DNA from: Polyangiales bacterium
GTDB lineage: Bacteria > Myxococcota_A > Polyangia > Polyangiales > Houyiibacteriaceae
Assembly (NCBI GenBank): GCA_965227405.1
Contig: OZ245758.1
Location: 2,868,338 to 2,932,337, forward strand
Length of the DNA stretch: 64,000 nt
Direction of reading: 5' to 3'
Shown here: positions 6,060 through 49,499 of the stretch, in pieces
How the letters are laid out: each line of letters begins with the position of its first letter
Numbering within the stretch: position 1 is the first letter of the stretch
Position numbers and translations under genes: made by a program
The notes under the pieces: generated by a model
Told to the model about the DNA's origin: nothing
The model's input: only the letters and a program-made list of their open reading frames with translations
Database searches by the model: none

Positions 6060-8657
<2,598 letters not shown>

Positions 8658-8863: not shown

Positions 8864-10018
8864 GTGAAACCAGGCAAGCACATGGGCGCGTACTTCGCAG
8901 CGCTTCCCTTCGTGCTTGGTCTGGTGTGGTTGGCGCTGCAGTTCATGGACAGCACATTGCTCGTGGAGCTCTCGCTCTATGCTGGACCGACTCTGCTCGC
9001 AGGCATGGTGCTCGGGCTCCCGATCGTGGCCGGCGTGTTTTGGAAACGCGGTGACGCTCATCCCATCGCACGTGCGGCGTTGATCATCACCTTGCTCTCA
9101 CCGCTTAGCGTGGTGCTTCCGTGGGCGTCGGTCCCCGCAAACATCGGTCTTGGGTTGGCGAACTTCGCGTTCTTTGCGGAGTGGCTGACGAAGTACCCGA
9201 ACTTCGGGCCGATCAACTACGAAGTGCTTCTCGGCATTCTGTGCATCTGCGGCTCGGCCACAATGCCCGCGGTCTATGCGGCGAGTCGACTTTGGGGAGA
9301 TGACGACAATCGCTCCCTGAGCGTCGTGCTCTTCGTGCTCTTTCTCGTCGCGTATCTGCCTGTGCTGTTTCGCCTCGATCTCGAATCGTTGCTGGTGTGG
9401 GGAGCCGCTTCGTACGTGTTTGCTGCCGGCGCGCTTATGCGAGCGCTCCTCTTGGTGTACATGGTGGTTGGCGTGTTTCACGGAACAGCAACGCGTGCGG
9501 CGGCGATGGCCGCAGTCCTGTTGATGGGATGCGATCAGGCACCACCCGTGAGTAGCGACCTGCGCTTCCACACTCCCAAAGCGACCATCGACACACTGCT
9601 CGAAACCTACGGTCTCGAGATGGTGAGCCAAGACGAGATTCGTCGACGCATGCAGATCGGTCGCTCGTTTCACCTCGTCGATCCCGAAACGCGCGATCTC
9701 TGCTTTGCAGATTTCGACGGTCCAGAAGACGAAGGCATGATCGGCTACGTGTTTGGTGGGTTGGCGCCCGCGAAGGACGACGTGCGCATCACCCAGACCG
9801 GCGACACTGCGCACGCGTTCGGTGAAACACGCGATGGGCGGCGCAATCGACCGATTGTTTTGGAACGTGACAGCACAGGTGCCTGGCGAATTGTGCTGGA
9901 GGAAAGCGTGCCGTCGGATGTTCGCGATCGCCTCGATCGGGTGGTGGAAGAGGGCGACAACCCGCTCAAACGCTACCGACAGCAAGCACCAACGCCCGAC
10001 ACGCCGACGCCTAACTGA
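8864..10018 (+). CDS. hypothetical membrane protein with C-terminal soluble domain
   Basis: About 200 aa with 5-6 TM helices, then a lipobox-like stretch (AAMAAVLLMGCDQ) and a roughly 170-aa soluble domain. Could be one protein or two fused calls. Lies upstream of the ion-transport operon. Confidence 0.35.
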   Translation: MKPGKHMGAYFAALPFVLGLVWLALQFMDSTLLVELSLYAGPTLLAGMVLGLPIVAGVFWKRGDAHPIARAALIITLLSPLSVVLPWASVPANIGLGLANFAFFAEWLTKYPNFGPINYEVLLGILCICGSATMPAVYAASRLWGDDDNRSLSVVLFVLFLVAYLPVLFRLDLESLLVWGAASYVFAAGALMRALLLVYMVVGVFHGTATRAAAMAAVLLMGCDQAPPVSSDLRFHTPKATIDTLLETYGLEMVSQDEIRRRMQIGRSFHLVDPETRDLCFADFDGPEDEGMIGYVFGGLAPAKDDVRITQTGDTAHAFGETRDGRRNRPIVLERDSTGAWRIVLEESVPSDVRDRLDRVVEEGDNPLKRYRQQAPTPDTPTPN

Positions 10019-10075: not shown

Positions 10076-11413
10076 GTGCGTCTACCCGTCCGTCTCTTGC
10101 TTGTCGGTGTGCTGCTCCTGGTTCCGCAACGCGTGTTTGCGGCCAGTACGGAAGAGTCCGATGTCAGCAACGTGGTGCTCCTCTTTACGGGCATCGCCGT
10201 GGCGTACCTACTCGCGCACTTCTTCGTCGACCGACTGCAGCAACGCTTCCTTGTTCTCAGTGGTGCTGAGTACATCCTGCTCGGACTCTTCTTAGGTCGC
10301 ATCGGACTGCTCGATGATCTCACCGGCATCCTTCCGCTGATCGCACTCGCTGCTGGATGGGTCGGACTCCTACGCGGCATGGAGATGGACTCGCAACATC
10401 TCATGAACCGACACGAGCGCACGCTGCGTTTGGTGTTCTTGCACCATGTTGTGCCTGGTGTGTTGGTCGGTTGCGCGGCGTACTGGTTCCTCTGGACCAG
10501 CGACTGGGGCGACTACTTCTTTGGTCACCTTGGCGTCGACGCGTTGCCGTGGCGCACCGTTGCCGCGAGCTGCTTCATGCTTGGGTGCTGCGCAGCATCG
10601 GATTCGGCCGAGCCCTTCGATCTCTTGATGCGCCGCTATCACATCGAAGGGGAACTGACGGCTCGCCTTCGCGCACTCGCGCGCTTCGGGGACTTCTTCG
10701 TCATCCTCGTGTTCGGTGCGGTGTTCTGCGTATTCCACCTGGATCGCGAAGGTGCCGAACTCTCGCTTTCTGCTGCCGAGTGGTTCCTCGTCCAGGTGAG
10801 TCTGGGGGTTGTGCTGGGCGCACTCTTCACACCGTTCTTGGGTGGTAACGAAAGCCCCAACGGTCGTTTCCTCGCGCTGACTGGAATCATCACGTTTGCA
10901 TCGGGCTCGGCGTACTTCCTCAACCTGTCGCCGCTGGCTGTGAACCTCGCGCTCGGCATGGTGTTGGTGAACGTGGCGCGCACTGGGCCACTGATGCGCG
11001 AGACGCTGCACACCACCGAGAAACCGATGACGCTCATGTTGTTGGTGTTGGCAGGTGCGCTGTGGCGAATGCCACCACTGATTCCCACGCTTGTGGCGAT
11101 TCTCGGCTTCGTGCTTCTGCGCACCTTGGGCAAAGCGATCGGCTCACGCGTCGCTGCCGCTGGTGTCGCGGGGATGCGCAACGATCTTTACCGCGGGTTT
11201 CTCTCGCACGGCGAAGTCACGCTTGCGATGGCGGTGTCGTTTCAGGTCGTCTTCGACGGACCGGTTGTCGACCTGGTCTACACCGTCGTGCTGGTCTCGG
11301 AGGTTGCCCACGACATCGTCGCGCCTCGCATTCTGCGCGGACTTCTCGTGGACGCGGGTGAAGTACGACGCGAACGACGCCAGCCCTTGGTGGCAGAAGA
11401 AGGAGCCAGCTGA
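10076..11413 (+). CDS. cation:proton antiporter-like membrane protein (divergent CPA/Na_H_exchanger fold)
   Basis: 445 aa with a signal peptide (MRLPVRLLLVGVLLLV) and about 11 TM helices with glycine-rich breaks typical of CPA transporters. Its stop overlaps the trkA start (TGATG). Confidence 0.45.
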   Translation: MRLPVRLLLVGVLLLVPQRVFAASTEESDVSNVVLLFTGIAVAYLLAHFFVDRLQQRFLVLSGAEYILLGLFLGRIGLLDDLTGILPLIALAAGWVGLLRGMEMDSQHLMNRHERTLRLVFLHHVVPGVLVGCAAYWFLWTSDWGDYFFGHLGVDALPWRTVAASCFMLGCCAASDSAEPFDLLMRRYHIEGELTARLRALARFGDFFVILVFGAVFCVFHLDREGAELSLSAAEWFLVQVSLGVVLGALFTPFLGGNESPNGRFLALTGIITFASGSAYFLNLSPLAVNLALGMVLVNVARTGPLMRETLHTTEKPMTLMLLVLAGALWRMPPLIPTLVAILGFVLLRTLGKAIGSRVAAAGVAGMRNDLYRGFLSHGEVTLAMAVSFQVVFDGPVVDLVYTVVLVSEVAHDIVAPRILRGLLVDAGEVRRERRQPLVAEEGAS

Positions 11414-12759
11414 TGTACGTCGTGGTGGTTGGTCTCGGCGAAGTGGGTCGGCACTTGCTTCAGGTGCTGGAGTTCGAAGGACACGATGTCGTTGCCATCG
11501 ACCGCGATCCCGCTGCGGTGAACTACGCGCGTGAGCATTTTGATGTCGCCACCTTGGAAGGGTATGGCGCCAGCGAAGAGATCCTGGACAAGGCGGGAGT
11601 TGGAAGCGCGGACCTACTCGTCGCCGCAAGTGACCACGACGAGGTGAACCTGATCGCTGCGCTGGCCGCCAAGCAACTCGGTGCCAAACGCGTGATCGCG
11701 CGCGTGCAGCGAAACGATTGGGCCAAGTGGCGAGCCGGTATTCGCTACGGACTTCTCGGGGTGGATGTCGTGATCAACCCACGCGTGTTGGTCGGACAGG
11801 AACTGGGACGCGTTGCACGTTCGCATGGTGCGGTGGACGTGATCGACCTGGCACAGGACCGCGTTGAGCTCGTGCAGATGTCGATGACGTCGCGCATGGC
11901 GAACCGACCGCTTTCCAAACTGCAGCTTCCTTCGCAAACATTGATCGCGGCGTACGTTCGCGACGGCGAGTTGGTGGTTCCTGGCGGAGCCGACGTGTTG
12001 CTTCCGGGCGATACCGTGTACCTGATCGGCCGCCCCGAAGCGATTCTCGAAGCCGAAGATCTGTTTTCGACGGAGCGCGAAGCGCGGCGGATCGTGATCG
12101 TCGGTGGTGGTGTGGTTGGACAAGCGCTTGCGCGCGAATTGCTGCCGCACGGTGTCCAGGTGACGCTCATCGAGCAGGACGAGAAGGTCGCCGAAGAGTT
12201 GGCGGTTCAATACGACGGCTTGGATGTGCGTGTCGGCGATGGAACCAACGCCGATCTGCTGCACGAAATTGAAATCGGAACCTACGACCTCTGCGCGTGC
12301 GTGACGCAAGAGGACGAGATCAACTTGATGGCCGCGTTGATGGCGAAGCGTCACGGAGTTCCGCGTACTGCCGCAGTTGTGAAGCGAGCCGACTACGGTC
12401 CGATCTACAAACAGCTGGGTATCGACATTGTGTTGAGCCCGCGTACGGTGGCGTCGGATCACATTCTTCGCTTCTGTCGCGGTGCCGCGGTGCACTCCGT
12501 TCACACACTGGAAGAAGGCGCGGCGGAAGTCATCGAACTCACTGCGCAACGTGGCTCTCCGATGGTCGGCACGCCGCTCAAGCGCGTGCGCATGCCCAAG
12601 GGCTCTCTGGTCTGCGCAGTGATTCGCCCCGATGACGTCACGGTCCCGCGCGGCGATGACGAAGTGAACGTGGGCGATCGTGTGGTCATCGTCGCCACGG
12701 CTGAAGCGAAGCCGTCGATCGAACGCATGTTCCGAGGGAGGCGCGTATTCAAGCGGTAG
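11413..12759 (+). CDS. trkA: Trk potassium uptake system NAD-binding subunit TrkA
   Basis: 448 aa with two tandem KTN/RCK units. Each has a Rossmann motif (VVVGLGEVGRHL and IVIVGGGVVGQALA) followed by a TrkA_C domain. Confidence 0.85.
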   Translation: MYVVVVGLGEVGRHLLQVLEFEGHDVVAIDRDPAAVNYAREHFDVATLEGYGASEEILDKAGVGSADLLVAASDHDEVNLIAALAAKQLGAKRVIARVQRNDWAKWRAGIRYGLLGVDVVINPRVLVGQELGRVARSHGAVDVIDLAQDRVELVQMSMTSRMANRPLSKLQLPSQTLIAAYVRDGELVVPGGADVLLPGDTVYLIGRPEAILEAEDLFSTEREARRIVIVGGGVVGQALARELLPHGVQVTLIEQDEKVAEELAVQYDGLDVRVGDGTNADLLHEIEIGTYDLCACVTQEDEINLMAALMAKRHGVPRTAAVVKRADYGPIYKQLGIDIVLSPRTVASDHILRFCRGAAVHSVHTLEEGAAEVIELTAQRGSPMVGTPLKRVRMPKGSLVCAVIRPDDVTVPRGDDEVNVGDRVVIVATAEAKPSIERMFRGRRVFKR

Positions 12760-12794: not shown

Positions 12795-14258
12795 GTGGGT
12801 CGTCCCGTCGGTGCTGTGGTCATGGGACTTGGCGGTGCGATCGCGCTTTGTGGCGCGACCGGCATGATCTGGGATGCGGTCGCGCCCAACGCGGACCTGC
12901 CGAGCGGTGGTGCGATGACCACGCTTGCAGCGGCTGCAGTGACGGTCGGAATTGGTGCCGCGGTGTTTGCGTGGGGACGGCAACAGCAAACTCTGACGCG
13001 TCGTGAAGCGTTGCTTGCCGTTGCGTTGATCTGGATCGCCGCCGGTGTGTGCGGCGGATTGCCCTACTGGTTTGGTGCGAGCATGTCGCCCGCGGATTCG
13101 TTCTTCGAATCGGTGAGCGGGCTGACCACGACAGGCGCAACGGTCATCACCGATATCGAAGACCGCCTGTCACGTCCGCTCTTGCTCTGGCGTTCGATGA
13201 GTCAGTGGCTTGGCGGTATGGGTATCGTCGTCCTCTTCGTTGCGATCTATCCGAGCTTGGGCGCGGGTTCGAAACGTCTCTACCGCGGTGAAGCACCGGG
13301 CGCGCAGGTCGAAGGCTTTCGCCCACGCATGTCCGAAACGTCCGTGACGCTGTGGAAGATCTACGCGGCGTTCACGATCTTGGAAGTGATCATCCTGAGC
13401 TTGCTCGGCATGGATGTCTTCGAAGCCGTGTGCCATTCGATGACGACCATGAGCACCGGCGGATTCTCCACGCGCGATGCGAGTGTGGGTGGTTTCGGCG
13501 TGGCGTCGTACGAGTGGACCATCAGCGTGTTCATGCTGATCGCCAGTGTGAACTTTGGGCTCTACTACCGATTGCTGCGCGGTCGTTCGCTGCGCTCGGT
13601 CGTGCGCGATATCGAGCTGCGCGCGTTTGGGCTCATCGTGTTGGTCGCCACCGCGATCTTCGCCGTACTCAACTATCGACTTCATCCGGAGCCGGTCGAG
13701 TCGCTCCGCTATGCGCTCTTCATGACAGCGACCACGGTTTCGAGCACGGGCTACGGCACCGACGACTACACGCAATTTCCGGTGCCTGCGTTTGGAATCA
13801 TGTTGGCGGTGATGTTCATCGGTGGGTGTTCCGGTTCGACCGCCGGCGGCATCAAGGTCGAACGCATCGTCATCCTGCTCAAACAAACGTTCGCGCAGAT
13901 CAAACGGAGCTTTGAACCCACTGCAGTGCACGTTGTGCGACTCGGAAAATCAGTCGTGCCTGCGCCGGTATTGGCCGACGTCGCCAGCTTCTTCGTCGTG
14001 TACATGATCACGATCGGTGTCGGTGTGCTGCTGGTCGCATCGGTTGAGTCGATTCCGATCACCACCGCGTTTGGCGCGATGCTCACCTCGGTCTCGAACA
14101 TGGGTCCGGCACCCTTCCATGATGCCGCCGGGTTGTCCGACAACTTCGCGAGCTATGGCGGCGCGACCAAGATCTTCTTTGCTGCCGCGATGCTGCTCGG
14201 TCGTCTGGAGTTCTTCACCTTGCTCTCTCTTCTTTTGCCCGGGTTCTGGCGCCGATGA
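12795..14258 (+). CDS. trkH: potassium transporter TrkH
   Basis: 487 aa polytopic membrane protein with repeated selectivity-filter-like segments (TTTGATV, STGGFS, SSTGYGT, CSGSTAGGI) typical of TrkH/KtrB. Its stop overlaps the next start (ATGA). Confidence 0.8.
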   Translation: MGRPVGAVVMGLGGAIALCGATGMIWDAVAPNADLPSGGAMTTLAAAAVTVGIGAAVFAWGRQQQTLTRREALLAVALIWIAAGVCGGLPYWFGASMSPADSFFESVSGLTTTGATVITDIEDRLSRPLLLWRSMSQWLGGMGIVVLFVAIYPSLGAGSKRLYRGEAPGAQVEGFRPRMSETSVTLWKIYAAFTILEVIILSLLGMDVFEAVCHSMTTMSTGGFSTRDASVGGFGVASYEWTISVFMLIASVNFGLYYRLLRGRSLRSVVRDIELRAFGLIVLVATAIFAVLNYRLHPEPVESLRYALFMTATTVSSTGYGTDDYTQFPVPAFGIMLAVMFIGGCSGSTAGGIKVERIVILLKQTFAQIKRSFEPTAVHVVRLGKSVVPAPVLADVASFFVVYMITIGVGVLLVASVESIPITTAFGAMLTSVSNMGPAPFHDAAGLSDNFASYGGATKIFFAAAMLLGRLEFFTLLSLLLPGFWRR

Positions 14259-17200
14259 GCGAACACGAAGACGAGACGCCGGAGGAACCGGTGAGCGAAG
14301 ACGAGACGGTCGAATCGACAGAGTCGGTTCAGGAGGACACCGGCGCCGAGCACAGCGACGAAGACCACGGTGATCACGCCGAGGATGATCACGGACACGG
14401 ACATGGTCATGGTGACCACGACGACGAGCATGGTGGTCACGGGCACGGTGAAGGCGCGACGTTCCGTCAGGCCACGATTGTCACGCTACTCGTTGCCGCG
14501 CTTCTCTTGCTGCACCGATTTGGCGACGCCGGCGGCTCGGGGCAGTTCGATCCGACCGCGATGTTGGCGCTCGGGTTCGTCGTGTTGGCGAGCTTCACGA
14601 TCGGTCACCTGGTCGACGTCATCAAGTTCCCCCACATCACCGGCTACCTGCTTGCCGGCATGGTGTTCGGGCCTTCGATCGGCGGCCTGCTCGACGATCT
14701 GCTGGAGATCCATCTGTGGGAGCCCTTCAACGAAGGTGTTCTGAACGACACGATCATCAAGCAGCTCAGTCCGCTCGAAACGCTGGCCGTTGCGCTCATC
14801 GCAATCACAGCCGGCGGTGAGCTCAAACTCGAGACACTACGCTCAGGGCTGCGATCGATCTTTTCGATCCTCGTGGTGCAGCTGATCTTCGTGCTCGGCG
14901 CAACGGTCGGACTCTTCTACCTGATCAGCGGTTCGATCCCGATGCTCGCGCTGCCAGGACTCGGCGAGATCAGTAGCTCAGCCATCGTGCCCATTGGCTT
15001 GACGCTTGGTGCGATCGGTTTTGCGACCTCTCCTGCGGCCACGATCGCGGTCATCAACGAAACCGGCGCGAAGGGCCCGATGTCGCGCACGGTGCTGAGC
15101 ACCGTCGTCCTCAAAGACGTCTTCGTCGTCATCATGTTCGGCATCTTCTCGGCGTTGGCTGTCCAAGCCATGGGTGGCGCGACCGAGGGCAATCTCGCGA
15201 TGGAGCTGCTGGTCCACATCGGTGGCTCAATGCTCGCGGGTGTGGTGCTGGGTGTCGCGCTCGCGCTTTACCTGCGCTTCGTCAACGCCGAGTTGATGCT
15301 GTTTATCGCCGGTACGGTTTATCTCGGCTCGTATCTGTCGTCGCAACTGCACCTCGATCCGGTCCTTGTGTTCCTGGTCGCTGGATTCGTGGTGTCGAAC
15401 TTCTCACGCCACGGCGAAACGCTCATCCACACGGTCGAGCGTCTCTCGATGCCGGTGTACGTGGTGTTCTTCACGCTCGCGGGCGCGAAGTTGCACCTGC
15501 ATGAGGTCATCCACGCGTTCTGGTTCGCGCTCGCGTTGGTGCTTGCTCGTATCGTTGCGATCTACCTGGGTGTGCGACTCGGTGGCTGGATCGGTCGTGC
15601 CGACGACGCGACCAAGAAACACGGTTGGATGGGCTTCGTGTCGCAAGCAGGAGTCGCGATCACGCTAGCCAGTTTCGTGAAGCGAGACTTTGGTGCACAG
15701 GGTGAAGCGCTTTCGAACTTGTTGATCGCTGGTGTTGCACTCAACGAGATCTTGGGTCCGGTTCTGCTCAAGATCGGATTGAGTCAAGCGGGCGAAACGC
15801 GAGCTGCAAAACAACAAGCCGCCGAACTCGCCGAAGCCGAAGAGGGCGAAACCAAGATCGAGATCGAAGCGTGGCCCGAGCCGGTCGACGATGTCGCGTG
15901 GGGTCCCCATCTCGCTGGCGCACTCGGTCGGCAGATTCGCGAACTCGAACACGACCTCAAAGCGAGCGTTCGTGACGTGGCCATGGGTCCGATGGAGACC
16001 TTCCGCGAAGACGTCGAACAGTTCTTCAAGGAAGTGCGCCGTGACTTCTTGCGCATGCATCGTCGCTTGTTGGTGGCCGCGCGTACGTTGCCCGAAGACA
16101 GCGAAGAACAGATCGCAGCGCGTGCAGAGATCGCCCGTCGTTTGCGCGGCGAGCAAAAGGAGTTGGCAGAGCGCTGGCGCTCCGTCGTCCTCGCGCGTGT
16201 GGCCCAACTGGGCAAAGAACCGCCCTGGACTCCTGAGTCGATCGTCGAGGCGCTGGATGGCGCAGTGGATCGGGTCGCGACCACCGTGGAGGTACCCTGG
16301 TCGGAACGCAGTTTCACAGCTCGCGAAGACGATGGTCGTCTTCAAGCTGCACAACGTCGTTGGCTTCGGATGCGCCGAGGGACGCGCCGGCTCTTTGGCC
16401 GCGACATGCCACCGCGTGTGTTGGCGCTTCGGGATCTCGCACGCTTTCACCTCAACTTTGAAACCCCGCCTCGTCTGGAAGGAGTGGCTGCGCTCTTTGT
16501 GGCTGCCGAACAACAAGTTGCGGGTCGAACGCGGCTGATCTTCGACACGATCGTGCGTTCGTACGACGACTTGGCTGACGCGATCGCCGACGACGACCAG
16601 CTGGACCTGGTCGACGCGTTGACCATGGTGCGCGCCGACATCGAGGTTGAGCTCGACTTGGCCACCCAAGAGGTTGGGCACATCGCACACGATGGTTCGT
16701 TGCGTACCGCACGCATTCTTTCGCGCGGACTGCGTGACGTGAAGGACGAGTCGGCGATCTACGGCACCTTCGACCTCCCGGAACGAGCACGTCGGAGCAG
16801 TCGCGGTCTTCGTGAACGCGTGCAAGCGCTGGACTTGTTGACGCACACGCTGACTCGCTTGCGACGTTCGTCCGGTGGCGAGCTTGCGCTGCTTGCGATG
16901 GAGCTCGAACTCGTGGGACTCGAAGCACAGGTCAAGGAGGCACGCGCGGAGCACGTGACGCGTCTCGAAGCGGAGGTGCAGCGGCGTGCAGTGCACCAGC
17001 TCGAACGCGTGGCCGATCAAGTTCGCTCGGCGTCCGACGAGATGTTGGAGGCGTTGGAGAAGGCCGAAGACCGAGACGAACTTGCGGCGGGGCTTCACGA
17101 AATCTCGCAAGCGACGGAGAAAGTTGCCGGCGAAGCGGCACGCATCGTGCGCGAGATGCGCGACGAGCTGCTGGACGATCAGAAGTTTGCACAGCTGCTG

Positions 17201-18919
17201 GAGACCCTCGAGGAAGCCGCGCTTGGCCTGACTCCACACTACGACGTGAGTGCGGGTCGCCTGCAGCGTGGTGAGTTTAAGTTGCCGCCGGTCGTGGAGC
17301 GGGTCGACGTTCCTTTCCGCGAGATGGTGGTCGCGCGCATCGAGACGCGCATCGCACCGAGCCTGTTCAAGTCCGCACGCGACACCGCCGACAAACTTCA
17401 ACCGCTAGCTGCGTCACTGACCGAAACTGAGCACCTGATCGCGTTCAACGACGACTTGGTTCGCACCGAACTCGACAGCTTGATGGACTCGCGCATTCCC
17501 AGCGAAACGCGTGACCTGCTCCGCGAGCTTCTGAGCACGCAGCTCGAACGAAGCCAGGGATTGCTTAGCGACTACCTCGACCAGGCGAGTTCGTGGCCGC
17601 GCCAGTTGGGGCAGTCGATCGTCGACGCGATGGAGGGAGGCGTCAACGAGCTGCGGGTGGAGTTGGTCGAAGGCCAGATCACGCGCGCCAAAGTTGAAGA
17701 GATCCGTCGCGAAGCCAACCGTCGTCGACTGGCACAGCGCGCGGGTCAGCTGCCCTCGTTGCTTCGACAAGCACGACGTGAACTTGGCGACGCGATCACG
17801 TCGTTGGTTGGTGCCTCGCGCTTGGAGCTCTGGCGTAGCGCACTCGGTCTACCGGTTCCCAAGAGCGCGTTGATCCTCGAGCCGGGCGCTTTTGAAGCGG
17901 CGAGCTCAGAGGCTGAGAATCTACCCCTGGTCTATCGGCGGTTGTTTGCGGGCGACGCGATGGATGCGGGTGATGTGCTCACCGGACGCGAAGCGAGCAT
18001 TGCGCGCGTGAAGAAGGCACTCGAAGAGCGTGATGCGCGGCGCGGTGTTGCGGTGATCGGCATTGAAGGCGTGGGACGTGGCTCGGTGGCTTCGGCAGCG
18101 GTGCGTGCCGGACGTTGGCGCCGCGTTCGCAACATCACCTTTACGGGACCGGCGACGGTCGAGGATGTCGTCGAGCAACTGGGTACGATCACCGACGCGC
18201 AGCTTGTCGTCGTGGACGGGCTGCACTGGTTGTTGAGCGCACGGCCCGAGGGGTTGGCTCCGCTACGACGCTTTGTGGACGAAGTCGTCGCCGATCGGGG
18301 CAAGCGTGCGTGGTTGGTGGTCGCCGAGTCGTTGTTTTGGGAGTACGCGTCGAGCGTTGCGCCCTTGAGCGAGGCGTTTCCGACGGTGGAGCAGCTCGCA
18401 CCGCTGGGTTTGGAAGAACTGCGTGCGGCCGTGATGGCGCGACATCGGCTCAGTGGATACGGGCATTCGTTCCAACGGATCGGAACCGAGAGCCGAATTG
18501 AAGGCCTGGTGGCGCGAAGCGCGAGTCGTATCCGTCGTCCCTTCGACCAGTACTTCCACGACCTGCATCTTGCGAGCGGTGGTGTGCTTCGCGACGCGTT
18601 GCGCTTGTGGCTGGCATCGATTCAAGGCGTGCAGGATGACGAGATCGTGCACGTGGGTCGTGTACCCGAGTCTGGTTTTGCGTCGGTGAGTCGTCTGCCG
18701 GAGCAGGAGTTGTTGTGGCTCTTTCAGATTGCCCGCCAGGGTTGGATGGACGCCGTCACGTTTGCGAGCGTGTTCCGGATTGAAGTGGGTGAAGCCAGTG
18801 CGCGTTTGGCGAAACTTGCGCACTTGGGGTTGCTGGAAGAAGCCGAAGGTCGGCACCGAATCACGCCGCACCTACGCGGAACCGCGGTGCGTGTGATGCA
18901 ACAGCGAGGCTGGGTATGA
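14255..18919 (+). CDS. giant fusion protein: His-rich acidic N-terminus, CPA2-type cation:proton antiporter domain, about 1000-aa coiled-coil region, degenerate AAA_16/STAND-like C-terminal module
   Basis: 1554 aa. Residues 1-70 are acidic with an HGHGHGHGDHDDEHGGHGHG run. Residues about 75-510 are a membrane domain with the CPA2/KefB-like GYLLAGMVFGPS motif. The remainder is Arg/Glu-rich helical sequence ending in RGVAVIGIEGVGRGS (Walker A with K to R) and LVVVDGLHWLL (the DDLHW-like motif of AAA_16). ATGA-coupled to trkH upstream and the MscS gene downstream. Confidence 0.6.
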   Translation: MSEHEDETPEEPVSEDETVESTESVQEDTGAEHSDEDHGDHAEDDHGHGHGHGDHDDEHGGHGHGEGATFRQATIVTLLVAALLLLHRFGDAGGSGQFDPTAMLALGFVVLASFTIGHLVDVIKFPHITGYLLAGMVFGPSIGGLLDDLLEIHLWEPFNEGVLNDTIIKQLSPLETLAVALIAITAGGELKLETLRSGLRSIFSILVVQLIFVLGATVGLFYLISGSIPMLALPGLGEISSSAIVPIGLTLGAIGFATSPAATIAVINETGAKGPMSRTVLSTVVLKDVFVVIMFGIFSALAVQAMGGATEGNLAMELLVHIGGSMLAGVVLGVALALYLRFVNAELMLFIAGTVYLGSYLSSQLHLDPVLVFLVAGFVVSNFSRHGETLIHTVERLSMPVYVVFFTLAGAKLHLHEVIHAFWFALALVLARIVAIYLGVRLGGWIGRADDATKKHGWMGFVSQAGVAITLASFVKRDFGAQGEALSNLLIAGVALNEILGPVLLKIGLSQAGETRAAKQQAAELAEAEEGETKIEIEAWPEPVDDVAWGPHLAGALGRQIRELEHDLKASVRDVAMGPMETFREDVEQFFKEVRRDFLRMHRRLLVAARTLPEDSEEQIAARAEIARRLRGEQKELAERWRSVVLARVAQLGKEPPWTPESIVEALDGAVDRVATTVEVPWSERSFTAREDDGRLQAAQRRWLRMRRGTRRLFGRDMPPRVLALRDLARFHLNFETPPRLEGVAALFVAAEQQVAGRTRLIFDTIVRSYDDLADAIADDDQLDLVDALTMVRADIEVELDLATQEVGHIAHDGSLRTARILSRGLRDVKDESAIYGTFDLPERARRSSRGLRERVQALDLLTHTLTRLRRSSGGELALLAMELELVGLEAQVKEARAEHVTRLEAEVQRRAVHQLERVADQVRSASDEMLEALEKAEDRDELAAGLHEISQATEKVAGEAARIVREMRDELLDDQKFAQLLETLEEAALGLTPHYDVSAGRLQRGEFKLPPVVERVDVPFREMVVARIETRIAPSLFKSARDTADKLQPLAASLTETEHLIAFNDDLVRTELDSLMDSRIPSETRDLLRELLSTQLERSQGLLSDYLDQASSWPRQLGQSIVDAMEGGVNELRVELVEGQITRAKVEEIRREANRRRLAQRAGQLPSLLRQARRELGDAITSLVGASRLELWRSALGLPVPKSALILEPGAFEAASSEAENLPLVYRRLFAGDAMDAGDVLTGREASIARVKKALEERDARRGVAVIGIEGVGRGSVASAAVRAGRWRRVRNITFTGPATVEDVVEQLGTITDAQLVVVDGLHWLLSARPEGLAPLRRFVDEVVADRGKRAWLVVAESLFWEYASSVAPLSEAFPTVEQLAPLGLEELRAAVMARHRLSGYGHSFQRIGTESRIEGLVARSASRIRRPFDQYFHDLHLASGGVLRDALRLWLASIQGVQDDEIVHVGRVPESGFASVSRLPEQELLWLFQIARQGWMDAVTFASVFRIEVGEASARLAKLAHLGLLEEAEGRHRITPHLRGTAVRVMQQRGWV

Positions 18920-20064
18920 GGTACGCGTTCCTGCTTGCGTTGATCGGTGCATCGACAGCGCACGCGCAAATCGGCTCACGCGGTGCGGTCGAAGTTGTTC
19001 GTGAGGGCGACAACGTACCCACACCGCCCCCTGAAGCGGAGCCCGCAGACGCGGTGGTTGCCATCGAAGATGTTCCTGAGGAGGAACCTGCGGTTGAGCC
19101 CGAGCCGGCGCCAGTTGCGCCCGAACGCGTTGAGGCACCAGTGCAGCGCACACAGCAGGCTGCGGAGATTCCTCCCGGAGATGCGGAGCCTCAGCCCCGT
19201 GAGCCTCGTGAGCCTCGTGAGCCCCGGGAGCCCACGACCATCGTCGAGCGCGTGGAGCAGCCTGCACCAGAACCCACAACGGTTGTGGTGGCTCGCGAAA
19301 GCGATCCGCTCGTCAACGAGCTTCAAGAGTTCGTGAGCATCTTTGGGCGTGATGGGAGTGGAAACCTCTGGGGCATCCTGCTCTGGTTCATTCTCGCTGC
19401 GGTCGCAGCCACTGGCATCCGCCGCGTTCGTGAGAGCTTTCCGTCGGATGGACTCATCCCCAACGCGCTCGCGCTCTTGCATGTAGGCATGCGATTGGTG
19501 GTGATCGCGCTCGCTCTCGCGTTCATCGTGCGTGCGCTTCCACCGCGTCTTTCGTTGGTGATGTTGCTGGCGTTCGCAGGTCTTGCTGTAGCGATCGGTT
19601 GGTCGCTTCGCGACGTGATGCCGGACCTAGTGGCGTCGTTGGTGATCGCGTTCGAGCGTCGCATTCGGCGTGGCGTGTGGGTGTCGGGTGAAGGGTTTGC
19701 AGGGCACGTTGAACGGCTGGGACTACGCGCCGCGCTTCTCTACGACACGCACGGCAACCGCGTGATGGTTCCCAACCGCGAGATCGTTCGTGCACCGGTT
19801 ACAGCAGGTGTGGGTGACCACGCTCGTGAGTTGGAGGTCGAAGTGCGCATTGCTGGACCGGCGGAAGAAGTACGCGCTGCGTTGCGCGATGCGGTGTTGA
19901 CCTCGCCTTGGGTTCATCCCGACGCAAAGCCGGTGGTGCTACGCGATCCTGCCGATCCTGAGCGCTGGCGCGTACGAGGACGCCTCTTGGAAGCGTCGTT
20001 TGGGGCGCGTTTTGAAGGAGAGCTTTTGGAGCGTGCCGAAGCCCTGCTAGGAAGAAGCGCGTGA
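18916..20064 (+). CDS. mechanosensitive ion channel, MscS family
   Basis: 382 aa with a signal peptide, then a Pro/Glu-rich low-complexity region including (PRE)n. It has three TM helices and the MscS beta-domain (GWSLRDVMPDLVASLVIAFERRIRRGVWVSGEGFAGHVERLGLRAALLYDTHGNRVMVPNREI). Confidence 0.75.
   Translation: MRYAFLLALIGASTAHAQIGSRGAVEVVREGDNVPTPPPEAEPADAVVAIEDVPEEEPAVEPEPAPVAPERVEAPVQRTQQAAEIPPGDAEPQPREPREPREPREPTTIVERVEQPAPEPTTVVVARESDPLVNELQEFVSIFGRDGSGNLWGILLWFILAAVAATGIRRVRESFPSDGLIPNALALLHVGMRLVVIALALAFIVRALPPRLSLVMLLAFAGLAVAIGWSLRDVMPDLVASLVIAFERRIRRGVWVSGEGFAGHVERLGLRAALLYDTHGNRVMVPNREIVRAPVTAGVGDHARELEVEVRIAGPAEEVRAALRDAVLTSPWVHPDAKPVVLRDPADPERWRVRGRLLEASFGARFEGELLERAEALLGRSA
19194..19232 (+). 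repeat. in-frame 9-bp tandem repeat (cgtgagcct x about 4) encoding PREPREPREPREP
   Basis: Visible as gagcctcgtgagcctcgtgagccccgggagccc in the sequence. Lies inside the MscS gene's N-terminal region. Coordinates approximate. Confidence 0.7.
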
Positions 20065-21095
20065 CGCTGCTGGCGCAGAACTTTCCGGCGCTCTCGATGG
20101 TGCCGCACGTGCCCCTCGCGCAGACCACGGCGGTGGAGCAAGTTGAAGAGCTGTCCACGAATGCCGAAGTGTGGGTTAAGCGCGATGACCAAACCTCGTC
20201 GGTGTACGGCGGCAACAAGGTGCGCAAGCTGGAGTTCCTTCTAGGCGACGCGCGTCAGCGTGACTCCAAGACGCTCGTGACCGCAGGGGCGTGGGGTTCG
20301 CATCACGTGTTAGCGACGACGCTCTTCGGCACCAAGTGGGGCTTCAACGTGCACGCGGTGATGGTTCCGCAGCCGCTGACTCCCCATGCCGAGAACAACC
20401 TGCGCTGCGTCGTGGGTGCGGGTGCGAAACTTCATCCCGTTCGAAGTTGGATCGCGACTGCACCCACCGTGGCTGGTTTGGTCGCATCGCTCAATCGTTC
20501 CGAAGGTGGTGCGTACCGGGTTGCGTACGGCGGCTCGTCCGTGGTGGGTGCACTCGGTTTTGTTGAAGCGGGCTTGGAACTCGCTGCGCAGATTGCCAAA
20601 GGCGAGTGTCCGGAACCGGATGCGATCTACGTTCCTCTGGGAAGCGGAGGGACAGCTGCTGGGCTCGCTGTAGGGCTCGCCGCAGCCGGCCTGACGACCG
20701 AAGTCGTTGCGGTGCGTGTGACGCCTTTGGTGGTGTGCAATCGCGCGACGGTGAGTGCGCTGGTGGTCGGCATTCTTCGGCATCTCCGATCGCTGGAGAT
20801 TTCGTTTCCGGCGGTGCGACGCGCGGCACTCTCCCAACTTCGTATCGATGGCAGCTTCTTTGGTGCCGGTTACGGAGAACGCGATCCTGCGGCAGAACGT
20901 GCCGCCGAGTGGGCCGAACGCTCTGGCCTTCACGTCGACCCGACCTACACCTCAAAGTCGCTTGCTGCGCTGATGCGCGATGCCGAAAGTTCGCGACAGG
21001 GTCAGAAGCTGCTGTTCTGGCTCACGCTCAGTGGAGCCGACCTGTCGGACCGACTTGCAGACGCGCCACCGCTTCCTGCATTTGCGAGACGATGA
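20061..21095 (+). CDS. PLP-dependent enzyme, 1-aminocyclopropane-1-carboxylate deaminase / D-cysteine desulfhydrase family
   Basis: 344 aa with the family hallmark KRDDQTSSVYGGNKVRKLEFLL (PLP lysine region) and a glycine-rich GSGGTAAG loop. GTG start overlapping the MscS stop (GTGA). Confidence 0.7.
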   Translation: MTLLAQNFPALSMVPHVPLAQTTAVEQVEELSTNAEVWVKRDDQTSSVYGGNKVRKLEFLLGDARQRDSKTLVTAGAWGSHHVLATTLFGTKWGFNVHAVMVPQPLTPHAENNLRCVVGAGAKLHPVRSWIATAPTVAGLVASLNRSEGGAYRVAYGGSSVVGALGFVEAGLELAAQIAKGECPEPDAIYVPLGSGGTAAGLAVGLAAAGLTTEVVAVRVTPLVVCNRATVSALVVGILRHLRSLEISFPAVRRAALSQLRIDGSFFGAGYGERDPAAERAAEWAERSGLHVDPTYTSKSLAALMRDAESSRQGQKLLFWLTLSGADLSDRLADAPPLPAFARR

Positions 21096-22462
21096 GCACC
21101 GAGCACTATCGCGCTGAGCTGTCGAAGCTCGTGCGGGGACGCTCTTGGATCGTGGCGACGGATGTTGTCGTGGGCGCAGCACGCCATGGCAAGCGCTTGC
21201 TCGACCTCGGTGCCGAACGCGTCTTGGTGATTGGTGGTTCACGCGGAACGGGCGACATCGACGAACGACTGCAGACGATCGAGCTCGGTCTTCGCGGCAA
21301 AGACATGATGGATGGAATCCGGTCTGCCGAAGCGGTGCTCGATGCACTGCCCGCGGAGGTCATCGCAGAGGTGGACGCGTTTGATCCGCAACGCGAAGCG
21401 TTGGTGGTTCGTGAACTGTTTTCGGAAGGTCGGCCTGTTGCCGGTCGACGCGTGTTTGGCGCGCGACGTCCGGAGTGGTTGGCGCTCGAAGACAAGATGA
21501 TCATCGATGCGTTTTGGGATGCTGCTGGGGTGACACGTGCACCCGCGAAGATCGTACCGGTGGCAGACGCAGAGCTTGCGCATCGAGAATTGAATCAAGG
21601 TCGCGGAACGGTTTGGGTCGCCGACAACCGCGAAGGTTGGCACGGCGGTGCGTTCTTTCTGCGCTGGATCCGACGGGACGAGGACATGCGTGAAGCCGTC
21701 GAGACTCTGGGAGGCGTCGCCGATCGTGTGCGGGTGATGCCCTTTCTGGATGGCGTTCCGTGTTCGATTCACGGCGTGGTGTTCGCGGACACGCAAATCA
21801 CGTTTCGACCGTGCGAGATGATGGTGTTCCGGACCGACAGCAACAAGCTCGCGTACGCGTCTGCGTCGACGTACTGGTTGCCGTCGAAATCCGACTCGGA
21901 TGCCATGCGAGACGTGGCGATCCGGGTGGGTCGCTACCTGCGCGATACGGTCGACTACCGCGGTTGCTTCACTGTCGATGGCGTGATGACGCGTGAAGGG
22001 TTTCTGCCGACCGAACTCAATCCACGCTACGGCGCTGCGCTTGGGCAGCTTGCAGCAGGCTTACCCGAGCTACCGCTCTACTTGTTGCACTTGGCGATCG
22101 TGGAAGGTGCGGCTCTGGACTACCGACCTTCGGAGTTGGAGTCGATGGTTGTGCGCGAGTCGCTCAAGAATCCTGCGGGGAAAGCCATGCGCATCGTGCC
22201 CGAGACGTTGGAGCCGCGCACCGCTGCGCTCGTGTTCGATGAAGGTGCGTTGCGTTTTGCTTCCGAGGGCGAACAAGCGAGCTTATCCGTCGAGCTCGGT
22301 CCTGCTGCATCCGGATCGATCCTCTTTGTCCGGGCAGTGCCTGACGCGTTGGAGTTAGGTCCTGCGCTCGGTCCACGGATCGTCGACGCGTTGCGCTTTC
22401 TCGACGACGCCTGGAAGTTGGGGCTGGGCGTGCTCGAAGCAGCCGAAGACGTACGCGAGTAG
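21092..22462 (+). CDS. ATP-grasp-like protein, function unknown
   Basis: Start set at MSTEHYRAELSKL, ATGA-coupled to the upstream stop; the track's 20606 start is an upstream in-frame extension. The central region has ATP-grasp-like features, including the E-x-N-P-R motif (LPTELNPRYG) and a preceding Gly-rich/Asp region. 456 aa. Confidence 0.4.
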   Translation: MSTEHYRAELSKLVRGRSWIVATDVVVGAARHGKRLLDLGAERVLVIGGSRGTGDIDERLQTIELGLRGKDMMDGIRSAEAVLDALPAEVIAEVDAFDPQREALVVRELFSEGRPVAGRRVFGARRPEWLALEDKMIIDAFWDAAGVTRAPAKIVPVADAELAHRELNQGRGTVWVADNREGWHGGAFFLRWIRRDEDMREAVETLGGVADRVRVMPFLDGVPCSIHGVVFADTQITFRPCEMMVFRTDSNKLAYASASTYWLPSKSDSDAMRDVAIRVGRYLRDTVDYRGCFTVDGVMTREGFLPTELNPRYGAALGQLAAGLPELPLYLLHLAIVEGAALDYRPSELESMVVRESLKNPAGKAMRIVPETLEPRTAALVFDEGALRFASEGEQASLSVELGPAASGSILFVRAVPDALELGPALGPRIVDALRFLDDAWKLGLGVLEAAEDVRE

Positions 22463-23545
22463 GTGTGGTACGTCTGCCGCGTGCGCACACTTCTTCCTCG
22501 GAGGTTTTCTCCAAAACTTGTGGTTCTCGCGTTCGCCCTCGCTTTGACTGGATGTTCCGGACTCAAGCTCACCAAGATCGATGGTGCGTACGGGTTGCCC
22601 AGCAACGTCGGGCTCTTTTTCACCGTCGACACGCGTGAGGGCGAGCCTGTTCCGGGCATGGCTGCCACCGACTTTGCGATTTACGAGGATGGTCAACTGG
22701 TTAGCGCTGACGAAAGCCAGCAGACCATTATCAATCCAGAAGTGGCGGCCGAGCACTACACGCTTCTGCTCGTGGACATGAGTGGAAGCGTGACCAACAG
22801 CGATCAGGTGCCGATGATCGTGAGCGCGGCACAGAGCTTCTCGTCGACGCTCGAGGGGTACCAAAAGGTCGCGGTGTACGCGTTTGATGGGTCGGAAGAG
22901 ATCCATCCGATTCAGCCTTTTCGTTCCAGTGCCGCAGGGATCTCACGCTTGGGTGGATTTCGGACGCGTGACCCCTCGACGAACCTCAACGGTGCGTTGG
23001 TCGCAGCAGCAGACATTCTGGATGGCGCGCTTGAAGAGGCCGAGACGCCGATGCGTTTCGGAACACTCGTGGTGTTCACCGACGGAACCGATCGCGCTTC
23101 CCGCGTGAGCGAAAGTGCAATGCGAAGTCGTTTGGGCGACAGCGGGTTTGACGTGTTCGCGATCGGAGTCGGCAACGAGATCGACGAGAACGTCCTCGAT
23201 CGGATTGGCTACAGCGGCTACGTGCTGATCGAAGACGCGGCGGCGATCGAAGCTGCGTTCCAAACGATCGGTGAACGGATCGTGGGCTACACGCAGCGGT
23301 TCTACCTGTTGAGCTACTGCAGCCCAGCACGTGCGGGGACACACGAAGTGACGGTGGAAGCGCTGCACCCGGATGGGCGCACCGGTTCGTTGGACTTTGC
23401 GTTCGATGCAACCGACTTTGGACCGGATTGTGATCCGAACCGACCGCCACCCTTTGATGCGACCGAGCGAATTCGGGTTCCGCGAACGACGGAGCGGCGC
23501 GGTCGGCTCCAAGTGCGCCTAAGCGCGAGCGTCGAAACCGAGTAG
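22463..23545 (+). CDS. von Willebrand factor type A (VWA) domain lipoprotein
   Basis: 360 aa with a lipobox LALTGCSG and the MIDAS motif LLVDMSGSV (DxSxS), with downstream T and D residues. GTG start immediately after the stop of the ATP-grasp gene. Confidence 0.65.
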   Translation: MWYVCRVRTLLPRRFSPKLVVLAFALALTGCSGLKLTKIDGAYGLPSNVGLFFTVDTREGEPVPGMAATDFAIYEDGQLVSADESQQTIINPEVAAEHYTLLLVDMSGSVTNSDQVPMIVSAAQSFSSTLEGYQKVAVYAFDGSEEIHPIQPFRSSAAGISRLGGFRTRDPSTNLNGALVAAADILDGALEEAETPMRFGTLVVFTDGTDRASRVSESAMRSRLGDSGFDVFAIGVGNEIDENVLDRIGYSGYVLIEDAAAIEAAFQTIGERIVGYTQRFYLLSYCSPARAGTHEVTVEALHPDGRTGSLDFAFDATDFGPDCDPNRPPPFDATERIRVPRTTERRGRLQVRLSASVETE

Positions 23546-48524: not shown

Positions 48525-49499
48525 GTGCAGATGGTGTATGCGCTCATCGACCAGGCGTTTGCCCGAGCGATGACGCCGTCGAGACGTCTTTACGCCGACG
48601 GGTTTGGCGATCGAGATCGCCTCGAGTCGTTGGTGCAGGGTGTACGCGAACTCGGAGCAGATCCGCCTGACCCGATCGACATCGCGTGGTCTTCACCTCG
48701 GACGCGTCTTGGAGTCGAGGTGACGCGTGGGACGTACCCATCGCCTGCATGCGAAGTGCTTCCTCCGGAAAGTCAGCGCGCGGTGTTGGAACGCTGGGTT
48801 CCCCAACCGAATGCACCGCACTGTCTGATTCTCGCAACCACCGGTGAAGAGGGATTCACCAATCGTCGGCTGCTCGCGATGTGGCTTGCTCGAAAAGGTG
48901 TCGCAAGCGTGATCGTGGAGAACCCGTACTACGGAGAGCGTCGTCCACGAAACCAAGTCGGTGCGGCGGTGCGAACCGTCGCGGATCAGTTTGCGATGAA
49001 CCTCGCGACAGTGATCGAAGTCCGTTCGTTGCTGGCGCATTTCGCGGAACAAGGTCTTGAAGTCGGTGCGACCGGGTTCTCGCAGGGTGGCATGATGGCG
49101 GCGTTTGGTGCTGCGCTGTCCGACTTTCCGGTTGCGGTCACACCACGCGGTGCAGCGTGTCGAGCGGAGAGTGTGTTCACGCGTGCGGCACTTGCGACCA
49201 CGATGCGGTGGGATGTGCTAACGGCCCAAGCCGGTTCGCGGAAAGCCGCCGAGGAGTATTTTGCGCAGTGCTTAGAGCCGGTACGCGTGGATCGACTTCC
49301 ACCGCCGAAGGCGCCGCACCAAGCGATCTTGGTCGCATCGCGACACGATGGTTTCATTCCTCCAAGTGAAGCCGAAGCCCTTCACGCTGCGTGGCCCGGG
49401 AGCGAGCTGCGTTGGCTTTCGGCTGGTCACGTCACGGGATTGGTGCTGCGCCATCCCACGCACCGTCGAGCGATTCTCGATGCGTTTGCGAGGCGCTAG
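48525..49499 (+). CDS. alpha/beta hydrolase fold protein
   Basis: 324 aa with a GFSQGG nucleophile-elbow-like motif. Its stop overlaps the GTG start of the kinase gene. Confidence 0.45.
   Translation: MQMVYALIDQAFARAMTPSRRLYADGFGDRDRLESLVQGVRELGADPPDPIDIAWSSPRTRLGVEVTRGTYPSPACEVLPPESQRAVLERWVPQPNAPHCLILATTGEEGFTNRRLLAMWLARKGVASVIVENPYYGERRPRNQVGAAVRTVADQFAMNLATVIEVRSLLAHFAEQGLEVGATGFSQGGMMAAFGAALSDFPVAVTPRGAACRAESVFTRAALATTMRWDVLTAQAGSRKAAEEYFAQCLEPVRVDRLPPPKAPHQAILVASRHDGFIPPSEAEALHAAWPGSELRWLSAGHVTGLVLRHPTHRRAILDAFARR

Follow-up and report, generated by a model that had tools for sequence, protein, structure and literature searches.

A giant Polyangiales protein with a CPA-superfamily membrane domain, a helical rod and a degenerate AAA+/winged-helix module: a candidate coupling subunit of a conserved Trk/CPA/MscS cassette

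What is the role of a protein that carries a membrane domain from the superfamily of cation:proton antiporters (CPA) and a degenerate nucleotide-binding module, and whose gene lies between those of a K+ transporter and an MscS-family channel? The question is raised by a giant open reading frame (ORF) in a 64,000-nucleotide stretch of a Polyangiales bacterium genome (assembly GCA_965227405.1, contig OZ245758.1, positions 2,868,338 to 2,932,337), referred to here as the window. The encoded protein, referred to here as the giant protein, is composed of a His-rich head, a membrane domain and a long arm consisting of a helical rod, an AAA+-like base and lid, and a winged helix (Table 1). The arm is an autonomous evolutionary module, found alone or fused to CPA or APC-type transporters, and the gene for an MscS-like channel recurs next to it across distant lineages. 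Our tentative proposal, to which we give somewhat less than an even chance, is that the giant protein is the central subunit of a conserved K+- and turgor-homeostasis module in which the arm couples the transporter and the channel. An earlier note, made from this DNA sequence alone, read the protein as an antiporter fused to an inactivated STAND scaffold; the ion-transporter domain, the inactivated P-loop NTPase and the winged helix of that reading stand, and the STAND identity is not supported. The autonomy of the arm, the MscS-like partner and the Trk/CPA/MscS cassette had been overlooked.

The giant ORF is a real gene and not an assembly chimera, since the same fusion recurs in at least 74 independent genomes. 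GC content is 0.60-0.65 throughout, with no break near 15.8 or 18.0 kb, where a chimeric junction had been feared. Orthologues of residues 520-1554 fall into 25 clusters at 33-96% identity, nearly all of which also contain PF00999, and the named sources of these clusters are Myxococcota, Sandaracinus or Polyangiales. A scan of species-representative genomes with a profile of the C-terminal region matched 123 genomes; 80 of these were fetched, all of them metagenome-assembled genomes (MAGs) and nearly all labelled Myxococcota or 'Deltaproteobacteria', and 74 genomic copies carry the CPA-domain fusion at full length (at least 74 species-level Myxococcota/Polyangia genomes). Searched with HMMER against 1.84 billion cluster representatives, a tail-only profile gave 210 matches at E<=1e-30, each representing a 50% identity cluster, and 1,160 at E<=1e-10. 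Site counts given below come from two alignments, one of the 83 closest genomic copies and one of 150 more diverse cluster representatives, and those for the CPA domain from 74 full-length sequences. Existing annotations of the relatives go no further than 'cation:proton antiporter', 'Kef-type...' or hypothetical, and no NCBIfam family matched the giant protein at E values up to 1.

Among the 150 representatives, 85 are fused to a CPA domain and at least 26 are standalone tails, the latter making up about a quarter of the complete representatives. One such tail is a soluble protein of 992 residues (P0024, locus L003) encoded between TrkH and MscS, and P0029-like proteins are also standalone. 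Standalone tails are likewise found in L083, which has MscS downstream and no Trk genes; in L084, where the tail has a canonical nucleotide site and is followed by MscS; and in L085, where the MscS gene overlaps the end of the tail gene. The L085 contig is Bacteroidota-like, since it carries a Por_Secre_tail gene, a type IX secretion signal typical of that phylum. The arm is also swappable between transporter classes, as P0176 (1,727 residues; L086, 265-5448, Bacteroidetes MAG GCA_007694165.1) joins it to an AA_permease/APC-type domain (PF00324, E=1e-47); its tail has the Walker A sequence GEHNSGKTF and a Walker B of the form hhhIED, and an MscS-like gene follows. In the very distant lineage of L087 (3529-13758), the cassette gene set appears in a different order: a UNK445-like gene, a CPA-tail fusion with a canonical GTGKTS, an MscS-like gene, TrkH, a short TrkA and a pyridoxal phosphate (PLP)-dependent enzyme.

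Directly downstream of the arm is the MscS gene in every one of the loci L001-L083 with sufficient flank, except L058 (CP070650.1, 10001-10945), a truncated C-terminal match with no MscS match downstream; the same adjacency is met again beyond Myxococcota, in L084, L085, L086 and L087. In the window the two genes are predicted to be translationally coupled through an ATGA stop/start overlap at 18916-18919, and a second such overlap joins the trkH stop (14255-14258) to the start of the giant gene. The order UNK445, TrkA, TrkH, giant protein, MscS is held in almost all of the 83 loci with enough flank. L042 has neither UNK445 nor Trk genes upstream, and in L072, where Trk genes are missing, UNK445 immediately precedes the giant gene. 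The MscS-like partner has the family's β-domain after a pore-lining transmembrane (TM) helix, and its best solved matches are MscK (7uw5, E=9e-8) and MscS (phmmer, query residues 154-340). It begins with a signal-peptide-like sequence (MRYAFLLALIGASTAHA) and continues with a Pro/Glu-rich segment of about 130 residues containing a PREPREPREPREP repeat, which precedes the TM helices and the β-domain; this N-terminal part is poorly conserved between orthologues. P0160 (1,641 residues) is an apparent in-frame fusion of CPA domain, tail and MscS, in which the signal peptide is missing and a TM helix directly follows 'ERGWI'. A second candidate, P0062 (2,083 residues), was rejected as a frameshift artefact, having out-of-frame RG-rich sequence after residue 1332 and then the MscS signal peptide.

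At the upstream end of the cassette is UNK445, a polytopic protein that current profile libraries miss. Compared with the CPA domain of the giant protein by hhalign, it aligns as a full-length paralogue over 385 columns with a probability of 98.8% (E=4.9e-17), and it reads 'R-x-G-D' where the giant protein has 'LKD'. In most loci UNK445 precedes trkA, and the distant L087 has a counterpart that matches it at a probability of 99.8%. A heterodimer of UNK445 and the giant protein is conceivable because CPA proteins are dimers. Two further candidates in this region were discarded: a UNK445-giant fusion in L072, where the tblastn matches lie in different reading frames of two overlapping ORFs, and a 447-residue protein upstream in L003, which is not homologous to UNK445. 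The PLP-dependent enzyme beyond the MscS gene is present in only a subset of loci, and its standing as a conserved functional partner is doubtful; its recurrence may be coincidental, since the window and L087 enzymes belong to different subfamilies, the latter being like BhcB, a beta-hydroxyaspartate dehydratase, or threonine dehydratase.

The C-terminal module of the giant protein forms, in an AlphaFold2 model built from a 19-sequence alignment (mean predicted local distance difference test (pLDDT) 87.6, predicted template modelling score (pTM) 0.84), a five-stranded α/β base, a helical lid and a winged helix. The module thus follows the AAA+ plan: its best solved matches in Foldseek are Orc1/Cdc6 (2v1u, E=2.6e-8) and RuvB (8efy, E=7e-8), with full-length alignments in the identical base, lid and winged-helix order. 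In independent agreement, a profile of the C-terminal family searched against PDB sequences matched ClpC1 (E=6.5e-4), RuvB over 166 positions (E=0.006) and Cdc6 (E=0.015). The last 60 residues matched the helix-turn-helix of EutK (E=0.017); the terminal helix-turn-helix-like segment noticed earlier is thus a predicted winged helix.

The STAND/AAA_16 label given to this module in the earlier note gained no support. Against Pfam, the C-terminal 332 residues gave sub-threshold matches only, to nSTAND1 (E=0.007, 16.5 bits against a cutoff of 27.1) and to AAA_16 (E=0.041, 14.8 bits against 32.6), both confined to about 50 N-terminal profile positions (2-52). The structural neighbours are not of STAND type, and the C-terminal repeat sensor of STAND proteins (TPR, WD40 or LRR) is missing. 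Elsewhere in the window is a Ser/Thr kinase of 1,301 residues (49391-53296, plus strand; noted earlier at 49499) of typical myxobacterial STAND-kinase architecture; it matches Pkinase and AAA_16 (E=6.7e-20) and, weakly and below threshold, TPR. The two proteins had been thought to share one module; hhalign gave a probability of 1.1% over 46 columns and BLASTP no match, and the likeness to the kinase AAA_16 is limited to the generic stretch from GRE to the P-loop.

Connecting this module to the membrane is a rod of about 700 residues, rich in Leu, Ala, Arg and Glu. The earlier description of a long Arg/Glu-rich helical region was correct, and its interpretation as a coiled coil was not borne out. 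An AlphaFold2 model of residues 516-1220 from 22 sequences (pLDDT 86.7, pTM 0.73) has helices of up to 89 residues broken by short strands, and the rod is predicted to consist of structured helical bundles, being neither a linker nor a plain coiled coil. It contains 46 invariant columns, many of which are Arg. In Pfam the rod drew nothing but noise, namely TMP_3, with 20 bits where the cutoff is 41, and CENP-O.

The nucleotide site is degenerate, as the earlier note had recognized: the Walker A-like box reads GIEGVGRGS, with Arg for Lys, and the Walker B-like strand LVVVDG. The window protein thus lacks the Walker A Lys, the adjoining Ser/Thr and the catalytic Glu, with R-G for K-[ST] and D-G for D-E; of the AAA+ hallmarks, the fold and a sensor-2-like arginine are present, and the GxxxxGK[ST] and hhhhDE signatures are absent. 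R1446 we take to be the sensor-2 arginine because the motif around it resembles GDxRxAL of Cdc6 and RFC. Across the 83 closest copies the residue after the Walker A Lys position is Ala in 66, Gly in 8, Val in 2 and Ser in 7, so that Ser/Thr is lost in 76, and the catalytic-Glu position, never acidic, is Gly in 79, Asn in 2 and Ala in 2. Erosion goes further among the 150 representatives, where 72 have no Walker A Lys (for example, GVGQGA, GAGRGA, SLDRQAALA and GPDELGVGA), 59 have Lys and no Ser/Thr, and 19 retain a canonical GK[ST].

While the nucleotide site decays, PLVYRRLF, RHRLSG and GGLVRDALRLW stay conserved; R1396, H1397, S1400 and G1401 are invariant, and the winged-helix His of HLRG is found in 81 of the 83 copies. 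Degeneration of the site is a family-wide trend, whereas the Lys-to-Arg change of the window protein is itself lineage-specific. Such a trend to lose catalytic residues, with the rest of the fold strongly conserved, is what marks a pseudo-enzyme. The starting point of this decay is suggested by distant outgroups of about 1,000-1,700 residues (P0169, P0172, P0173, P0174, P0175 and P0176), in which Walker A is canonical (GSGKTS, GTGKTS, GSGKST or NSGKTF) and, in all but P0174, an acidic Walker B is kept (E-D, in the form hhhLED, E-S or E-N). Against Pfam, P0169 reaches 29.0 bits for AAA_16, below the cutoff of 32.6, and one outgroup matches AAA_22 at threshold (27.8 bits against 27).

The membrane domain is assigned by its profile match to the CPA superfamily. 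The Pfam family Na_H_Exchanger (PF00999) matches residues 110-503 (E=1.5e-26, 93.6 bits against a cutoff of 26.2), spanning profile positions 2-372 of 375 and including GYLLAGMVFGPS. The earlier note had placed the domain more narrowly, in CPA2 with KefB; the superfamily was right, and neither CPA2 nor Kef gained support, no NCBIfam model having matched. Searched as a single sequence against the PDB with phmmer, the CPA core has no solved relative, and a family profile finds SOS1/NHX7, a CPA1 protein, as the best and only match, at a weak E=7e-4.

Subfamily placement can be judged from the CPA motif, eight positions long, that Masrati et al. 2018 (PMC6181914) describe. As set out there, CPA1 has Glu at position 5 and Arg at position 8; CPA2 lacks that Glu, has Lys at position 8 and carries D, N or Q at position 6 before D at position 7; and clades selective for K+ are marked by small Ser/Thr residues in the unwound TM4. 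In the giant protein, positions 1-4 read A-T-S-P, aligned with ATDP of SOS1 and with the Ser present in all 74 sequences, and positions 6-7 read K-D, aligned with N-D of SOS1 (Lys in 69 of 74, Asp in 73 of 74). Residue 283, which occupies position 5 and lies four before K287, is Val in 30, Ala in 19, Thr in 13 and Ser in 10 of the 74, and never Glu. CPA1 membership fails because of this last position, and A-T-S-P and K-D stand in place of the x-T-D-x and N-D of that subfamily. Kef (KefB/KefC) membership also fails, because no curated Kef, YbaL or K+/H+ antiporter model matches and the KTN domain (TrkA_N) is not present in the giant protein. The lack of Glu at position 5 would agree with CPA2; Lys at position 6 is not among the states quoted from PMC6181914. 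The candidate for position 8 is K412 in 'LAGAKL' (Lys in 59 of 74), an assignment made by internal-repeat reasoning and not by structural alignment.

With Ser in TM4, a mark of K+-selective clades, and Trk genes as neighbours, K+ is the more likely substrate of this domain than Na+. The replacement of Asp by Ser together with the Lys-Asp pair suggests an ion site of altered, K+-type chemistry, possibly serving sensing rather than fast transport.

Preceding the membrane domain is the head, whose His- and acid-rich character agrees with its first description (residues 1-70: 17% His, 21% Glu, 16% Asp; net charge -26). It is variable or absent in most orthologues, and three or more GH/HG dipeptides are found in 15 of 74. 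Alternate loops of the 14-TM model carry 13 and 3 Lys/Arg, obeying the positive-inside rule, and the head is on this account probably cytoplasmic, on the same side as the tail. The earlier note had put the His track on the opposite side of the membrane, for metal or pH sensing there; a lineage-specific, probably cytoplasmic head gives that idea no support.

How might these parts work together? The arm would serve as a scaffold or regulatory subunit that for the most part does without nucleotide, its ancestor being an AAA+ switch driven by ATP, which in the outgroups still has the look of an active one. The arm would physically link the tethered transporter with the MscS-like channel, and possibly with TrkAH, so that K+ uptake, cation/H+ exchange and emergency solute release could be co-regulated during osmotic change. 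Several observations weigh against this proposal. Evidence for a link between arm and channel is genomic, consisting of adjacency and one apparent fusion, and that fusion, P0160, could be an artefact as P0062 was. CPA proteins are dimers and MscS channels heptamers, and a simple stoichiometric complex is for that reason not obvious. The rod has no informative structural relative. Independence from nucleotide is also in question: 81 of the 83 closest copies have the Walker A Lys, Arg being found only in the window protein and L003; the Walker B acid is Asp in 65 and Glu in 6; and the sensor-2-like Arg (GGLVRDALRLW) is retained in 82. Nucleotide binding without hydrolysis is possible in the family, since most close relatives keep these three residues, and even a P-loop site with Arg for Lys can still bind phosphate.

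A wider form of the proposal, which we regard as possible though doubtful, starts from a two-gene module present in at least two phyla. In it, the rod-AAA+-winged-helix protein would serve a subclass of MscS-like channels as a cytoplasmic subunit with an accessory or gating role, ATP-competent in appearance in Bacteroidota-like lineages and a pseudo-ATPase in Polyangia, and tethered to a CPA domain, to an APC-type permease or to no transporter. In Polyangia it would nucleate a supercomplex with TrkAH and a heterodimeric CPA pair formed by the giant protein and UNK445, acting as an integrated turgor and K+ controller.

Alternatively, and in our view rather unlikely, the giant protein is a self-contained antiporter, its rod and AAA+/winged-helix module autoregulating the CPA exchanger, like the C-terminal tails of SOS1 and NHE or the KTN domain of KefC, and the Trk and MscS genes merely co-expressed with it in an osmoregulon. 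Large cytosolic regulatory tails are an established design among CPA exchangers, and SOS1, the best solved match, has one; the CPA fusion in more than half of the 150 representatives fits this explanation, as does a cassette whose genes all concern K+ or osmotic flux. It is weakened by the standalone tails of L003, L083, L084 and L085, which have no transporter domain and still adjoin an MscS gene, and by the tail of P0176, which is carried by an unrelated APC-type permease. Adjacency to MscS moreover survives the loss of the Trk genes in L083 and the shuffled gene order of L087.

The residues that count against a nucleotide-independent arm are also those that speak for a working switch of STAND or initiator type, which would sense ATP/ADP or energy status, change its oligomeric state and gate the transporter or channel, in parallel with the ATP/ADP gating of TrkA. 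Close relatives keep the Walker A Lys, the Walker B acid (71 of 83) and the sensor-2 Arg, the outgroup sites are fully canonical, and the conserved winged-helix His is one that we take to be reminiscent of the MHD His of STAND proteins. We nevertheless find such a switch improbable: in the window protein Arg replaces Lys and Gly replaces Ser/Thr, the Mg-coordinating Ser/Thr is lost in most of the close copies and the catalytic-Glu position is acidic in none, and the nearly half of the diverse representatives without Lys, together with their many eroded glycine loops, indicate relaxed selection on the nucleotide site.

More improbable still is a membrane-tethered transcription regulator, in which DNA binding by the winged helix would put the operon under the control of transporter state, following the one-component logic of CadC and ToxR. 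The weak match of the winged helix to the nucleic-acid-binding EutK domain, the resemblance of the module to DNA-binding Orc1/Cdc6 and RuvB, and the high conservation of the recognition-helix-like HLGLLE speak for such a regulator. In AAA+ and STAND modules, however, the winged helix usually belongs structurally to the nucleotide-binding unit, the net positive charge of this segment is small as judged from its sequence, conserved operator-like repeats were not noticed, no search having been aimed at them, and the HLRG motif is not found in the outgroups.

Finally, although P0062 shows that frameshift chimeras do occur among the database relatives and STAND NTPases fused to membrane effectors exist in defence systems, an assembly or gene-calling artefact and a STAND-like anti-phage sensor with membrane-depolarising effectors are both effectively refuted by the recurrence of the fusion at 33-96% identity with collinear housekeeping neighbours, by the even composition of the gene and by the absence of any match between the cassette proteins and the PADLOC defence models.

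Table 1. Features of the giant protein and of its gene cassette, with positions in the window.
Feature	Position	Strand	Remarks
UNK445, cryptic CPA-fold paralogue	10076..11413	+	445 aa, polytopic; no Pfam or PDB sequence match
TrkA, double RCK	11413..12759	+	Pfam TrkA_N and TrkA_C; NCBIfam TrkA equivalog, 426 bits against a cutoff of 293
TrkH K+ transporter	12795..14258	+	Pfam TrkH, E=3.7e-56; TrkH equivalog below cutoff (325 against 866)
Giant gene	14255..18919	+	1554 aa, ATG start; head, CPA-fold membrane domain, helical rod, pseudo-AAA+, winged helix
Acidic His-rich low-complexity head, residues 1-70	14255..14464	+	Lineage-specific, probably cytoplasmic
CPA-superfamily membrane domain, residues 71-510	14465..15784	+	14 TM including an extra N-terminal helix, from hydropathy/topology
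Unwound-TM4 motif A257-T258-S259-P260	15023..15034	+	CPA motif positions 1-4; Ser replaces the usual Asp
K287-D288	15113..15118	+	CPA motif positions 6-7; replaces ND/DD/QD
Predicted helical-bundle rod of about 700 aa, residues 516-1214	15800..17896	+	No Pfam or NCBIfam family
AAA+ α/β base (modelled), residues ~1240-1381	17972..18397	+	Degenerate nucleotide site
Walker A-like box G1269-IEGVG-R1275-G-S1277	18059..18085	+	Lys to Arg; Ser/Thr to Gly
Walker B-like strand L1317-VVV-D1321-G1322	18203..18220	+	Single acid; catalytic Glu missing
AAA+ lid (modelled), residues ~1386-1454	18410..18616	+	RHRLSG motif; sensor-2-like G1442-GVLR1446-DALRLW
C-terminal winged helix (modelled), residues ~1456-1550	18620..18904	+	HLGLLE and H1539-LRG conserved; helices and hairpin in the AlphaFold2 model
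MscS-family channel gene	18916..20064	+	PF00924, E=1.6e-8
PLP-dependent enzyme	20061..21095	+	D-cysteine desulfhydrase/ACC deaminase-like subfamily; below all equivalog cutoffs

Flanking the cassette are genes of ordinary or uncharacterized type. Upstream, on the minus strand, is an ordinary ClpB-type disaggregase (6060-8657; Clp_N, AAA, AAA_lid_9, AAA_2 and ClpB_D2-small), followed on the plus strand by an ORF of 384 residues (8864-10018) that is conserved only in the closest relative, L048. Downstream is a plus-strand ORF of about 456 residues (~21092-22462) and, after it, a VWA-domain protein (22463-23545). Neither the 384-residue nor the ~456-residue ORF matched Pfam, NCBIfam or PADLOC.

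The mechanosensitive channels of bacteria and their K+ transporters are commonly viewed as parts with separate regulation, and the giant family is a candidate for a device that would couple them physically. Its members form a natural series in which the evolution of pseudo-enzymes can be followed, with a canonical AAA+ ATPase at one end and a conserved scaffold with a fully eroded site at the other, and the family adds a CPA ion site of unusual Lys-Asp type as well as a cryptic CPA paralogue. A full-text literature search found no description of the fusion architecture, of the Trk/CPA/MscS cassette or of an MscS accessory subunit of the rod-AAA+ type. That the family represents an undescribed class of channel/transporter accessory machinery is a possibility that we hold with some reserve, thinking it less probable than the contrary.

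Closest in overall design are SOS1/NHX7, NHE and KefC, in which a CPA-fold membrane domain is likewise followed by a large, presumably regulatory cytoplasmic domain in a setting of K+/Na+/H+ homeostasis. The tail of the giant protein differs from theirs in being a rod with a degenerate AAA+/winged-helix module, not a domain of cyclic-nucleotide-binding (CNBD) or KTN/RCK type, and in occurring also as a separate protein and on an APC-type transporter. The ion site differs as well, with A-T-S-P and K-D in place of the ATD/ND of CPA1 and the DD/QD of CPA2.

The C-terminal module shares with Orc1/Cdc6 and RuvB a GRE lead-in to the P-loop, an 'L-x-PL-x-x-x-EL' sequence after β5 and the sensor-2-like GG-x-x-R-D-A-L-R-L. 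Identity to these proteins is 11-19% (14% to the top Orc1/Cdc6 matches), and unlike them the giant protein has lost the key Walker A residues and the catalytic Glu, lies in no replication or recombination context and carries the module on a 700-residue rod that is usually attached to a membrane transporter. Likeness to the STAND/AAA_16 NTPases extends to the GRE lead-in, a Walker B box resembling hhhh[DE]-x-L-H-W and the order of nucleotide-binding domain, helical domain and winged helix; it stops at the low AAA_16 score of the window protein and at the missing repeat sensor.

On the channel side, the comparison is with MscK/KefA and MscM, which share an MscS-family channel, MscK being the best match of the partner, and the theme of a mechanosensitive release valve linked to K+. 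The additional domains of MscK and MscM lie within the channel polypeptide and are periplasmic or membrane-embedded, whereas here the extra machinery is a separate cytoplasmic protein of rod and AAA+ type, usually tethered to another transporter. Each part of the system is thus of a known kind, be it CPA, AAA+, MscS or Trk; what appears to be new is their combination, the swappable tether, the K-D site and a family of AAA+ and pseudo-AAA+ proteins associated with MscS channels.

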